Shown: positions 2,386 through 24,000, counted from the first letter of the stretch. The stretch is DNA of 24,000 bases from Synechococcus sp. UW140 (GCA_943370565.1 CALRRL020000006.1:89157-113156), one strand, 5' to 3'. Notes: generated by a model from the letters alone, not told the origin. Numbers and translations: made by a program.

Positions 2386-2915
2386 GAGAGCGTGTGCAGG
2401 TAGGCCAGCAGGTCGGCCATGGCCTGGGGTTCCGGCTGGAAGCGGGGCATGGGCGGCGTCTGGCCGCTCACCACCTGCTGGATCAGTTGGCGGTCGTTCT
2501 TGCGGGCCTTGACGCCATGGAGGTTGGGCCCCACCAGACCCTGGGCACCGATGCCATGGCAGCCGGCGCAGTTGATCAGAAACAGCTGGCCGCCCCGCTC
2601 GGCCGAACCGGCCAGTTGCAGGGTGCTGCGGCTGTAGGGATCGCTGCGGGCCGCGGGCAAGGCCACCAGCAGCAGAAACAGGGCCGTGGCCACCGCCGCC
2701 ACCACCAGCATCGCCGTCACCAGGCTGCGCTGCCGGGGACCGGGCTCCAGGCTGGCGTCAGGGCCGGATGTGGCTGACCTGGCCGAAGACGCTGGCCTGC
2801 CTGAAGACCCAATGGTGACCGGAGACCCTGATGGGGCCGATGATCCTGCTGGAGCCGGCGTGCTGGACGGATCGGGGGCCGGGGATGGGGCCGGGGCGGA
2901 GGGCGGGGCGATCAA
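2382..2915 (-). CDS. cytM: Membrane-anchored mono-haem c-type cytochrome (CytM-like)
   Basis: Haem-binding CAGCH motif, downstream Met ligand candidate (QTPPMPRF) and one hydrophobic helix ([20 protein letters not shown]). It lies divergent to petG, as I recall for cytM in picocyanobacteria. The first 68 aa are a low-complexity Pro/Ser/Ala tract, so the true start may be ATG 2711. Confidence 0.7.
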
Positions 2916-5562: not shown

Positions 5563-5621
5563 AAAAAGCCCGGACGCGCCGGGCCGGGGGGTGTGAGGAG
5601 TGTGCGAGCCGAAGCCCCCAC
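5563..5621 (-). ncRNA. yfr1: Yfr1 small regulatory RNA
   Basis: The minus strand reads GUGGGGGCUUCGGCUCGCAC (stem-loop with UUCG loop), then ACUCCUCACAC, then CCCCCGGCCCGGCGCGUCCGGGCUUUUU (terminator hairpin plus U-tail). ACUCCUCACAC is the invariant single-stranded Yfr1 motif. The length is about 59 nt. A TAGTCT -10-like box lies at 5633-5628. The position between the guaB-like gene and trxA matches the known yfr1 locus in marine picocyanobacteria. Confidence 0.8.
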
Positions 5622-18847: not shown

Positions 18848-19788
18848 GCAGGGCTGCGGCACCACCCTCCCACCGCCCCACCGGTCCCCGGCCGGGGGCT
18901 CCAGGCCCCGGGGACCTTGCGTCCAGGGCGGCCCAGTCGTTGGGCCCGGGTCCCCGCGGGCTTCAGGCGGCCCCCCTGGCCAGGGGCCTGCAGCTGGTGC
19001 TGCTGCTGGGGATCGCCCTGGCGATGCTGCTGCCCCTGATCTGGCTGGTGAGCACCTCCCTCAAGGGCCCGGCAGAAGACATCTTCACCAGTCCCCCAGC
19101 CCTGCTGCCCAGCCAGCCCAGCATGGAGGCCTACCTGCGCCTGTTCAGCGACAACCCGATGCTGGGGTACCTCCTCAACAGCACGCTTGTTAGCGGCCTG
19201 GCGGTGGTTGCCAACCTGCTCTTCTGCTCCCTGGCGGCCTACCCCCTGGCGCGGATGCGCTTTGCCGGCCGCGGCCTGGTGCTGGCCCTGGTGGTGGCCA
19301 CGATCCTGATCCCCTTTCAGGTGGTGATGATTCCCCTGTATCTATTGATGGTGCAGCTGGGCCTGCGCAATACCCTGCTGGCCCTGATCCTGCCCCAGGC
19401 CGCCACCGCCTTTGGCATCTTCCTGCTGCGCCAGAGTTTTGCCGGGGTGCCGGCCGAACTCGAAGAGGCGGCCCGCATCGATGGCTGCACGCCCCTGGGC
19501 GAATGGTGGAACGTGATGATTCCCGCGGCCCGGGCCGACCTGATCACCCTGGCGATGTTTGTGTTCATCGGCACCTGGAGCGATTTCCTCTGGCCCCTGG
19601 TGATCCTCGATGACCCCAAGCTCTACACCCTGCCCCTCGGCCTGCAGCAGCTGGCCAGCAGTTTCTCCCTCGACTGGAGATTGGTGGCGGCCGGTTCGGT
19701 GGTCTCGATCCTGCCGGTGCTGGCGGTGTTCATTGGCTTGCAGCGCTATATCCTTCCCAGCGCCTCAGGGGATGCCGTCAAGGGCTGA
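18844..19788 (+). CDS. Carbohydrate-type ABC transporter permease (MalG/CUT1-like)
   Basis: [10 protein letters not shown] is present, with the EAA loop [29 protein letters not shown] and about six hydrophobic segments. The ATG overlaps the leuA stop (ATGA at 18844-18847). The Pro/Arg-rich first ~40 aa make the exact start uncertain. Confidence 0.8.
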
Positions 19789-20706
19789 GTCAGCCCCCTG
19801 AGCCTGGCACCCGGAGCCGGGATGGGGGCTCCAATCCGGGCTCCCCGAGCCCAGTTCCTGCCGCAACCAACGCGCCATGGCCGTGTTGATCGCGAGCAGA
19901 TCGGCCACCGGCTGGTTGGTGAAGGGCAGGGTCTGCAGGTAGCCATCGGGGCCGAATTCCGGCGTCAGGGTGAGGGGCTGGATGGGTCCAGCCGCCTGGC
20001 GGGCGGCCTGGCGAGAGCGCTGGCTTGCGGCAAACAACCGCCAGCAGGCCAGGTGAGCCGCCAACGCCTCGCCGTGTTCCGGCGCAAAGGGATGGTTCAC
20101 CTGGGGCCCCTGGGCGTGGCCGATGCGGGCATGGATGTGGTCCACATGGGCGGCCATGGCCTGGATCGGCGCCAGCTCCGGCGTCATCAGCCGCTCCGCC
20201 ACCACGCACCAGTGGCTGAGGTCGGCCGTGAGCCGCAGGCCCGGGAAGGCCCCAAGCCAGTCGGCCATGGCCCAGGGATGGGCCAGGCTGCGGGAGCGAT
20301 GGGTTTCAAAGCTCACCGCCAGACCACTGGCCTCAGCCAAGGCGATCGCCCGGGGCCAGAAGCGTTCCTGCTGGCGCCAGCTCCAGCTGTCGCTACCGGT
20401 GATCACCGTCACCTTCAGGGGCCGCAGGCTGGGGCAGGCCTCCAGCTGCTGCTCCAGCTCGGCCAGGTGGTCGTCCACGGACGCCGCCAGGTCGGGCACG
20501 TAATCGCCACCGGTGACCAGTTCCAGCACCAGCTTCAGATCAGCCTGGCCCAGCTGGTCGGCGGCGGCGGCCAGGGGGCGCTCGCGAAGCACCGGGTGGC
20601 GCAGGTTCAGCTCCAGGCCATCGAAGCCCCGCGAGCGGGCCTGGTCGATCGCGGCCTCCAGCCGTCCGCTGAACCCCCAGAGGCTGTGGAAGAGGAGCAG
20701 GTCCAT
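19765..20706 (-). CDS. Xylose isomerase-like TIM-barrel protein (sugar phosphate isomerase/epimerase family)
   Basis: GFDGLELNL...VSFETH...ADLSHW...HIHARIG fits the pattern of the AP-endonuclease-2/xylose isomerase-like fold. The 3' end overlaps the convergent permease gene by 24 nt. Confidence 0.7.
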   Translation of the reverse strand: MDLLLFHSLWGFSGRLEAAIDQARSRGFDGLELNLRHPVLRERPLAAAADQLGQADLKLVLELVTGGDYVPDLAASVDDHLAELEQQLEACPSLRPLKVTVITGSDSWSWRQQERFWPRAIALAEASGLAVSFETHRSRSLAHPWAMADWLGAFPGLRLTADLSHWCVVAERLMTPELAPIQAMAAHVDHIHARIGHAQGPQVNHPFAPEHGEALAAHLACWRLFAASQRSRQAARQAAGPIQPLTLTPEFGPDGYLQTLPFTNQPVADLLAINTAMARWLRQELGSGSPDWSPHPGSGCQAQGADSALDGIP

Positions 20707-20825
20707 CGGCGAGGCCTGGGCAGGGGGTCTGGCTGGGGCACTGTTGGCCGGCTGCGGCGGGAGTTCGGTAACGACCGGTACAACCGGCCCCGGCCAGGGG
20801 CGAGACGATCCCGGAGCGGATAGCT

Positions 20826-20960
20826 GTTCCTAGGGTTCCGGCCCAGACCTCCCGGGCAACCGGGTGGCCTGGGTGACTGGTCCGAGAGGGACGCACCGGG
20901 CGGGCCTGCTCCAGCGGGTCTGGCCGGTGGCACGGAGGGATAAAAGCCCGGGAGACCGCC
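20826..20960 (+). promoter_or_regulatory. Guanidine-I (ykkC) riboswitch aptamer in the 5' leader of the arginase-family gene
   Basis: All conserved ykkC blocks are present in order. They are CTAGGGTTCCGG (20830-20841), CTGGTCCGAGAG (20877-20888) and CACGGAGGGATAAAAGCCCGGGAGA (20931-20955). A helix lies between the first two blocks: CCCAG/CTGGG enclosing CCCGG-GCAA-CCGGG. CACCGG/CCGGTG pairing lies before the last block. The element ends 22 nt upstream of the ATG at 20982. Confidence 0.88.
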
Positions 20961-20981
20961 CCCCACAGCCCCCCTGCCTCC

Positions 20982-22616: not shown

Positions 22617-22780
22617 GTCCAAGCCTGAGCGAGGGGCCATCTGCTGCAATCCCGCTCCAGCCAGGCGGCGCCACTGAGCCAAGCAATCAAGCGCATCAAG
22701 GCCACTCCCTAGCTCGCGGTTGAGGCCATTGCTGGTTTCTTGATTGCCATCCCATTTGACCCTGATTTGCCTGAACTGCC

Positions 22781-23512
22781 ATGCACATGCCCCTAGAAGA
22801 CACCCTTGGCCTCAATTTATTGGCGGCCAACCAACATCAAGCCGAACACAACCGCGAGCATTTTGATGCCTGGAGATTGCTCTGTCTCAATGTGATGAGC
22901 AGCCCGGGGGCGGGCAAAACCTCCCTGCTGGAGCGCAGCCTCGCCCAACTCTCCGAGGAGTTTGCGATGGCGGTGCTTGAAGGGGACATGACCACCCAGC
23001 TCGATGCCGAACGCCTGGAGGCGGTGGGGGTGCCGGTGGTGCCGATCACCACGGGCCGGGCCTGTCACCTCGATGCGGCGATGGTGAGCGGCGGCCTCAA
23101 GCTGCTGGGCCAGCGCCTCGATCCCGCCAGCCTGGATCTGCTGTGGGTGGAAAACGTGGGCAACCTGGTCTGCCCGGCCGAATTCGAGGTCGGCGAACAC
23201 AACAAGGTGGCCCTGCTCAGTGTCACCGAAGGCGAGGACAAGCCCCTCAAGTATCCGGTGATGTTCCGCGAAGCCGATTGCGTGCTGATCACCAAGATTG
23301 ATTTGCTTCCCTATCTGCCGGTGGATGTGGATCGCATTGAAGCCCACATCCGCCAGGTCAATCCCCGCTGCAGCGTGATCCGGGTGTCGGCCAGCAGCGG
23401 TGCCGGCCTGGACAGCTGGCATGCCTGGTTGCGGGCCAGCCATGCCGCCCAGTGCCCGCGCCCCGTTGGGGCATCCCCCCGCTCCGCCCACCCCACCCTG
23501 GTGAACGCATGA
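22781..23512 (+). CDS. HypB-like nickel-dependent GTPase (GhaB-type accessory protein)
   Basis: The P-loop [11 protein letters not shown], the [12 protein letters not shown] metal/switch motif and the guanine-specificity motif TKIDLLP are present. Confidence 0.85.
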
Positions 23513-24000
23513 GTAACCCCGACTGGTCCCAGATCAGAGCCGAGCTGGAGCAGAAGGGCGTGCGCTACGCCCTGGCCAGCTTTGTCGATCTGCACGGCAT
23601 GACCAAGGCCAAGGCCGTGCCTTTAGCCCACCTGGGCCAGATGGCCCGGGGCTCGGAACTGTTCACCGGCGCCGCCCTCGATGGTGTGCCCCAGGAGGTG
23701 AGCGATGACGAGGTGGCGGCCCTGCCCGACCCTGCCAGCCTGACGATTTTGCCCTGGCAACGGGAGGTGGCCTGGTTCGCCAGCGACCTGCAGCTGCGCG
23801 GCGAGCCGTTTGCCGCCTGCAGCCGCAACGTGCTGCACCGGGTGCGGGCCGAAGCCGCCGCCATGGGCTATCGCTTCAACCTCGGCATCGAAACGGAATT
23901 CTTCGTGCTGAAGCGCAATGGCGCCGGGGACCTGGTGCCCTACAGCGAACGCGACACCCTGGATAAGCCCGCCTATGACGTGCGCGGCCTGCTCGACAAC
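23509..24000 (+). CDS. Glutamine synthetase family protein (GlnA/PuuA-like), 5' part only; continues beyond the window
   Basis: An open frame runs from ATG 23509 to the window edge, so it is absent from the ORF track. The N-terminal GS beta-grasp pattern is present ([22 protein letters not shown]...[12 protein letters not shown]), followed by GIETEFFV. The ATG overlaps the HypB-like stop (ATGA). Confidence 0.8.

Follow-up and report, generated by a model that had tools for sequence, protein, structure and literature searches.

Guanidine has only recently been recognized as a real nitrogen source, for which carboxylase and nickel-hydrolase routes, the importer GimABC and several exporters are known. 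The closest described systems are the Synechocystis locus sll1077–1082 (PMC12704784) and the marine cluster Syn-eCAG_001 (PMC10119275), which share one order of elements, namely a riboswitch, gdmH, ghaA, ghaB and the genes of an NMT1-type ABC importer, with an NtcA box upstream. A trailing Rieske gene has been noted in marine Synechococcus and Cyanobium clusters, and the published gene list of the marine picocyanobacterial cluster is limited to speB2, hypA, hypB, tauABC and the Rieske gene (PMC10119275). The characterized Synechocystis locus contains no glutamine synthetase (GS)-like gene (PMC12704784), in agreement with what was said in a preliminary description of the DNA considered here. 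That DNA, a stretch of 24,000 nt from the freshwater picocyanobacterium Synechococcus sp. UW140 (GCA_943370565.1, CALRRL020000006.1:89157–113156; hereafter the window), has the same order and the upstream NtcA box, and shares the trailing Rieske gene with the marine cluster. It differs from both described loci in that a gene for a GmaS-like gamma-glutamyl ligase is inserted between ghaB and gimA, in apparent coupling to ghaB, and in that no consensus NtcA box precedes gimA. We regard as settled, by the comparisons set out below, the predictions that the product of this gene is a gamma-glutamyl ligase of the GmaS/TIGR03105 lineage and not GlnA, and that it belongs to guanidine-responsive, NtcA-linked operons as a dedicated component.

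The exact HypB-like protein of the window was located on a single 30.8-kb assembly contig (L001), which is identical to the window across their full 3068-nt overlap and on which the GS-like gene, truncated by the end of the window, is complete (L001 2577–3926, 449 aa). The window and the contig together show eight genes on the same strand (gdmH, ghaA, ghaB, the ligase gene, three genes of a gimABC-like importer and a Rieske oxygenase gene), preceded by an NtcA box and then a guanidine-I riboswitch (Table 1). Beyond the ligase gene there follow a 185-nt gap, genes for an SsuA/NMT1-family solute-binding protein, a permease and an ATPase, and a gene for a 365-aa Rieske/Ring_hydroxyl_A oxygenase (L001 6720–7817, plus strand, about 4.1 kb past the window end), which closes the operon. 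The ABC transporter corresponds to the Synechocystis guanidine importer GimABC (PMC12704784). The guanidine hydrolase module described earlier upstream of the ligase gene is borne out by the matches to the riboswitch, HypA and HypB models given in Table 1 and by a score of 774 bits between the gdmH product and the solved Synechocystis guanidine hydrolase Sll1077 (PDB 7esr/7oi1). The ligase had been put forward as an added fourth component of the pathway, and it is indeed encoded by the fourth gene; however, because the operon continues with gimABC and the Rieske oxygenase gene, it is the fourth of eight and not terminal. The nearest solved relatives of the Rieske oxygenase are C–N-cleaving or N-demethylating enzymes, all at low scores (CntA, 69 bits; Stc2, NdmA and SxtT), and it could be an alkylguanidine demethylase.

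Table 1. Features of the guanidine-responsive operon and of its upstream neighbour in the 24-kb window
Feature	Position	Strand	Evidence
Xylose-isomerase-like TIM-barrel protein, 313 aa, divergent upstream gene	19765..20706	-	Pfam AP_endonuc_2, 33.7 bits
NtcA-type box GTAACGACCGGTAC (GTA-N8-TAC)	20768..20781	+	Sole perfect match in the 24-kb window (expected 0.14)
Guanidine-I (ykkC subtype 1) riboswitch aptamer	20819..20956	+	Rfam RF00442, 77.8 bits (gathering score 63), full model 1-107
gdmH, Ni-dependent guanidine hydrolase orthologue, 396 aa	20982..22172	+	Pfam Arginase, 261 bits
ghaA, HypA-like Ni chaperone, 146 aa	22176..22616	+	Pfam HypA, 86.6 bits
ghaB, HypB-like GTPase, 243 aa	22781..23512	+	TIGR00073 hypB, 281 bits
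ATGA stop/start overlap of ghaB and the GS-like gene	23509..23512	+	Direct reading; overlap kept in 54/57 loci
GS-like (GmaS-like gamma-glutamyl ligase) gene, first 164 codons, open to the window end	23509..24000	+	TIGR03105, PDB matches, residue analysis

The junction between ghaB and the ligase gene can be read directly as the ATGA noted in the preliminary description, the ATG that opens the GS-like frame (23509–23511) overlapping the TGA that closes the HypB-like frame (23510–23512). Between the preceding stop and this ATG the frame offers only one other start, GTG at 23452, and comparison with other loci supports the ATG as the favoured start. Among the 57 picocyanobacterial loci that hold both ghaB and the GS orthologue, the junction is ATGA (−4) in 23 and TGATG (−1) in 31, with a 1-nt spacer in two and a 35-nt spacer in one. 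Since one or other form of overlap is present in 54 of these loci, it is not due to chance, and translational coupling of the ligase gene to ghaB, as first proposed, is supported by this conservation. Further upstream, a 164-nt untranslated gap (window 22617–22780) parts ghaA from ghaB in L001–L010, where most other picocyanobacterial loci have 10–50 nt; the chain of translational coupling would therefore be interrupted there.

It had also been claimed that the ligase gene lies within the transcription unit led by the riboswitch. Consensus scans predicted no sigma-70-like promoter and no plus-strand terminator from the riboswitch through the ligase gene into gimA, no terminator-like site on the plus strand ahead of L001 position 4788, and no NtcA box between the leader and gimA, the ligase–gimA gap included, so that the box ahead of the riboswitch is the only one. 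An independent promoter before the ligase gene or gimA was rejected on the basis of these scans only, that is, by inference. Because promoter, terminator and NtcA box are all lacking in the predictions from leader to gimA, we consider co-transcription of the ligase gene in the riboswitch-led operon to be well supported, but still inferred. The NtcA-type box ends 38 nt upstream of the aptamer and is followed, 22 nt downstream, by a −10-like GACGAT hexamer; a GTA-N8-[TC]AC box occupies the equivalent position in picocyanobacterial loci. Only 25 nt (window 20957–20981) lie between the end of the aptamer and the gdmH ATG, with no terminator and no obvious Shine–Dalgarno sequence, and on account of this short distance and the missing terminator the riboswitch probably acts on translation, or by some other mechanism. 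An RNA-family search of L001, the ligase–gimA gap included, revealed neither a further riboswitch nor any other family at E<=1. The gap itself holds about six tandem copies of a unit of approximately 10 nt (CCGAGTTCAG-like) at L001 3940–4000.

With respect to the protein family, residues 11–164 of the window fragment match TIGR03105 best (160 bits over 152 of 435 positions), and the Pfam models Gln-synt_N and Gln-synt_C also match. The full-length ligase passes TIGR03105 ('type III glutamate--ammonia ligase'; 569.2 bits against a cutoff of 469.6, model positions 3–435) and falls below the cutoffs of the GlnA model TIGR00653 (341.2 against 429.15 bits) and the PuuA model NF045547 (278.9 against 650 bits); PuuA was rejected on this score and GlnN-type GS III on length. 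Its best PDB matches are the GmaS structures 9qur (392 bits) and 7cql (Rhodovulum sp. 12E13; 325 bits), each about 44% identical, with true glutamine synthetases scoring below both. The ligase shares fold family and length with these enzymes and, judged by the residue roles assigned in the structural study of RhGmaS (PMC7948447), keeps the catalytic Asp177, Glu186 and Arg312 (RhGmaS numbering) as well as Lys30', Tyr147 and Glu179, with Trp at the Glu-flap position. From type I GlnA, to which it is about 30% identical, the ATP, glutamate and metal residues Glu129, Glu131, Glu212, Glu220, His269, Arg321, Arg339 and Arg359 are conserved, whereas the GS ammonium residues are absent, Asp50' being replaced by Thr, Ser53' by Ala and the catalytic flap residue Glu327 by Thr/Trp in the window protein and in all 12 orthologues; GmaS likewise lacks Asp50' and Ser53'. 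These GS positions were located with what we take to be the E. coli GS sequence, used as a ruler only. Ala48' and Trp300, the equivalent residues of RhGmaS (PMC7948447), served as a cross-check. Since the GlnA model is failed, the GmaS structures are the closest relatives and the GS ammonium residues are absent, the ligase is not a housekeeping GlnA, as the preliminary description had allowed it might be. The view taken there, from 164 codons, that the subfamily could not be assigned is superseded by the full-length gene, which falls in the GmaS/TIGR03105 lineage as a distinct sub-clade.

The sub-clade is marked by five changes relative to both proven GmaS enzymes, Gln175Ser, Asn188Asp, Ala48'Thr, His237Asn and Trp189Phe, which are found in the window protein and in every orthologue examined. 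Five of the seven methylamine-pocket residues are kept (Tyr147, Asp177, Glu179, Glu186 and Lys30'); the remaining two are the substituted positions 175 (Ser) and 188 (Asp), which line the amine pocket and are invariant from cyanobacteria to Stutzerimonas. The five-residue signature, T/S/D/F/N, recurs in distant representatives, down to about 46% identity. The phylogenetic placement called for earlier, carried out as a neighbour-joining tree (441 columns, 100 bootstraps), yields a separate clade whose support of 80–100/100 varies with the breadth of the clade drawn: 100/100 for a cyanobacterial-plus-Stutzerimonas core, 92/100 for a wider group and 80/100 for the separation of the whole clade from both GmaS groups (9qur and 7cql). 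Strict monophyly of the signature was rejected (0/100 bootstraps), because members with variant signatures branch inside the clade. The ligase further differs from GmaS in that its gene is predicted to be under the control of the guanidine-I riboswitch and NtcA, and in that none of the N-methylglutamate pathway genes (mgsABC, mgdABCD) was found in the 24-kb window or in the 10 kb downstream. About 35 Cyanobium loci carry a second, canonical GmaS-type paralogue approximately 8 kb downstream of the operon (L015 19129–20430; L011 18093–19355), which scores 627 bits against TIGR03105, is 62% identical to RhGmaS, keeps Gln175 and Asn188 and is without the five changes of the clade. It is preceded by a gene for a PRK07581 MetX-like alpha/beta hydrolase, and in an actinobacterial locus (L086) a hydrolase gene of this family comes after that of the clade member.

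A conservation scan with one genome per species returned 80 loci. In approximately 55 picocyanobacterial species (Cyanobium, Synechococcus UW140-like, Vulcanococcus and Aphanothece) the ligase is 72–95% identical, and the order riboswitch–gdmH–ghaA–ghaB–ligase–gimA–gimB–gimC–Rieske is kept wherever the contig is long enough; the linkage therefore holds in related genomes. A further 12 loci, here termed Nodosilinea-type (Nodosilinea, Leptolyngbya, Phormidium tenue and related filaments), encode a ligase 67–69% identical and have no gdmH, ghaA or ghaB within 10 kb of it. In all seven of these loci that were tested, the ligase gene is preceded at a distance of about 100 nt by a guanidine-I aptamer (Rfam 78–84 bits); by motif the aptamer was recognized in 11, all of which have a perfect NtcA box upstream of the riboswitch. 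The ligase gene is then followed by gimABC-like genes (47–54% identical) and a Rieske oxygenase gene (about 37%). Conservation of the Rieske gene at this end of the operon extends to about 50 loci in picocyanobacteria and to 10 of the Nodosilinea type. The GimA-like solute-binding proteins have an invariant WxxW motif and several invariant Asp residues. The preliminary description had suggested a survey for GS-like genes behind ykkC riboswitches elsewhere, and the Nodosilinea, Leptolyngbya and Phormidium orthologues, each directly behind its own guanidine-I aptamer, are the strongest support for the interpretation given there, although this arrangement was not foreseen in it. The aptamer of L062 overlaps, at its 3' end, a hairpin of −33 kcal/mol (z = −7.1) that is followed by a U-run, and the leader is predicted to be a classical transcriptional ON switch. 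The expression platform thus appears to differ between lineages, since Nodosilinea-type leaders carry a strong intrinsic terminator and the window leader none. Some of these operons continue past the Rieske gene with a conserved gene for a 289-aa protein that has a weak match to the Pfam family HRI1 (L062 15599–16468; also L059 and L068–L070) and is absent from the picocyanobacterial operons.

The remaining settings of the clade are more varied. The Stutzerimonas orthologue, 67% identical, lies within a conserved TetR-linked cluster (Stutzerimonas kunmingensis, L074 4301–13163, and L072–L081), which holds genes for a BiuH-like isochorismatase-family hydrolase, an MBL-fold protein, two proteins without a family match, an ABC permease, an ATPase and a TIGR03427 'urea-carboxylase-associated' solute-binding protein (513 bits). 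For S. stutzeri, catabolism of creatinine via methylguanidine to methylamine has been reported in the old literature (PMC12623156). In Phormidesmis (L058) the ligase gene follows that of an amidase-signature enzyme, near a cyanate lyase gene, and no riboswitch was found in either the Stutzerimonas or the Phormidesmis loci. Clade members in L082 and L085 follow creatininase-family genes, and in L086 the ligase gene precedes that of the MetX-like hydrolase, next to an Amt transporter gene. The creatininase-family/ligase pair of L085 is preceded by a borderline ykkC-type leader (2658–2753, plus strand; 63.9 bits against a gathering score of 63), the core of which is changed at normally conserved positions (GGACCGAGAG, and ACCAGGGGACAAAAGCCCGGAAGG in place of ACGGAGGGAUAAAAGCCCGGGAGA); this leader may represent a variant ligand class.

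The most likely function of the ligase is to trap the group, NH4+ or an alkylamine, that leaves in guanidine-type hydrolysis, a reading that we hold tentatively and with something short of even confidence. Under nitrogen limitation NtcA would open the promoter and guanidine would switch the leader on; GimABC would import guanidine or close analogues, and nickel-loaded GdmH would cleave the C–N bond. The nucleophile thereby released (NH4+ if the substrate is guanidine, methylammonium if it is methylguanidine) would then be joined to glutamate in a gamma-amide linkage by the ligase, whose translation would be coupled to that of ghaB, so that the nitrogen would not be lost from a very small cell and would enter metabolism as glutamine or a glutamine analogue. 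We favour trapping because an adjacent C–N hydrolase of varying family is the one constant across five architectures (GdmH in the present locus, the amidase-signature enzyme of L058, the BiuH-like hydrolase of Stutzerimonas, the creatininase-family proteins of L082 and L085 and the MetX-like hydrolase of L086), and because the common product of these hydrolases would be ammonia or a small amine. GmaS enzymes accept NH4+, RhGmaS turning it over as well as methylamine (PMC7948447). A number of points nevertheless weigh against trapping, a model that rests on sequence and gene context. The residues with which GS binds ammonium are absent from the ligase; Gln175Ser and Asn188Asp are predicted to enlarge the amine pocket and to add negative charge, neither of which is needed for NH4+, and both depart from the proven methylamine enzymes. 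A second ammonia trap looks redundant, as a high-affinity GlnA should already exist in these cells. The Nodosilinea-type operon, with riboswitch, ligase, importer and Rieske oxygenase, has no recognizable hydrolase within 10 kb, and marine Synechococcus operons are without the ligase (PMC10119275). The version in which methylguanidine yields methylamine is weakened by the report that Synechocystis GdmH is highly specific for free guanidine (PMC12623156).

The same observations can be arranged in other ways. The clade with Ser175 and Asp188 might comprise glutamate–guanidine (or –alkylguanidine) ligases, catalysing the ATP-dependent gamma-glutamylation of the stable guanidinium ion to gamma-glutamylguanidine, an N-acylguanidine that a partner (a ureohydrolase, a creatininase-like protein, a BiuH-like hydrolase or the Rieske oxygenase) would then cleave, for example to glutamine and urea. 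We think this unlikely, even though the orthologue comes first behind a guanidine-I ON switch in operons with no known guanidine-degrading enzyme within 10 kb, the creatininase-family and ligase genes of L085 have the variant leader in front of them, and the solute-binding proteins encoded nearby, either GimA-like or TIGR03427, are of guanidine type. The invariant substitutions at 175, giving more room, and at 188, giving a fourth carboxylate, would accommodate a bulkier cation rich in hydrogen-bond donors, although this pocket argument comes from sequence alignment only. The creatininase, biuret hydrolase and ureohydrolase families act on acylguanidine- or acylurea-like bonds, and to our knowledge all other 'misannotated' classes of enzyme controlled by guanidine riboswitches have proved to act on guanidine. 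Such a ligase activity would, however, be unprecedented, with no report of it to date; GdmH in the same operon already consumes free guanidine and the two enzymes would compete; the Phormidesmis orthologue lies beside amidase and cyanate lyase genes without a riboswitch; and marine operons have GdmH and the Rieske oxygenase without the ligase (PMC10119275).

Alternatively, the gene may encode a true GmaS that has methylamine as its physiological substrate, apart from guanidine chemistry, and simply rides in a nitrogen-scavenging island. The closest solved relatives, the retention of all GmaS catalytic residues and the TIGR03105 score all agree with this, and the downstream Rieske oxygenase, in its resemblance to the N-demethylases CntA, Stc2 and NdmA, could demethylate gamma-glutamylmethylamide. 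It nonetheless seems to us quite improbable, in view of the limited identity to proven GmaS enzymes, the separation of the clade from both GmaS groups (80–100% bootstrap), the two altered pocket residues and the missing N-methylglutamate pathway genes; many Cyanobium genomes, moreover, already carry the canonical paralogue nearby, and direct control by a guanidine riboswitch in three lineages would be left unexplained. That the gene is a housekeeping glnA lying beside ghaB by chance, or an independently transcribed gene, is effectively refuted. Gln-synt_C is present and homologues are labelled 'glutamine synthetase' in the sources, but the failure of the GlnA model, the loss of Asp50', Ser53' and Glu327, the conserved stop/start overlap with ghaB and the lack of any promoter-like site or NtcA box upstream of the ligase gene in the scans all speak against it.

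A GS-family ligase and a Rieske oxygenase are likewise found in one operon in arylamine systems (gamma-glutamylanilide synthetase with aniline dioxygenase; NpaA1, PMC11335346), and the shared logic is gamma-glutamylation to handle an amine. Unlike these, the UW140 operon has no gamma-glutamyl hydrolase or amidotransferase partner, its Rieske oxygenase is nearest, at the low scores given above, to CntA, Stc2 and NdmA, and marine strains have the Rieske gene without the ligase. Searches of the literature on gmaS with guanidine and on the guanidine riboswitch with Rieske proteins found no characterization of the ligase. The preliminary description's term 'undescribed' is accordingly fair as regards characterization, but a single sentence in PMC12704784 does mention a GS gene flanking gdmH in Synechococcus WH8020. 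What is new is a conserved, riboswitch-controlled enzyme that none of the characterized guanidine systems contains, in a clade defined by a sequence signature and available for testing in three natural operon variants. Trapping, if true, would show how very small, nitrogen-limited cells avoid the loss of NH3 or methylamine during guanidine use. Ligation of guanidine itself would be new enzymology and a third biochemical route of guanidine assimilation, ATP-driven and analogous in its logic to guanidine carboxylase, with the riboswitch–ligase–importer–Rieske operon of Nodosilinea and Leptolyngbya as its minimal form. On either reading thousands of 'type III glutamine synthetase' genes would gain a better annotation, and the result would inform guanidine-inducible systems in cyanobacterial biotechnology.

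The divergent TIM-barrel gene upstream of the NtcA box is probably a neighbour outside the operon; the supplement of PMC10119275 lists a 'TIM barrel domain-containing protein' beside the marine cluster. Ordinary core genes, among them gyrA, leuA and a lycopene cyclase gene, make up the rest of the 24-kb window, and no other GS is present there. Several records of metagenome-assembled genomes that hold this operon, with ligases 82–94% identical (L006, L008, L014, L033, L037 and L039), bear the titles of unrelated organisms (Pimelobacter simplex, Bifidobacterium breve, Chitinophaga, Tabrizicola, Sulfopaludibacter and Bordetella parapertussis) and look like mislabelled bins in the public collections. 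Elsewhere in the window, the cyanobacterial small RNA Yfr1 is present at full length on the minus strand at 5565–5621 (Rfam RF01116, 65.8 bits against a gathering score of 38).

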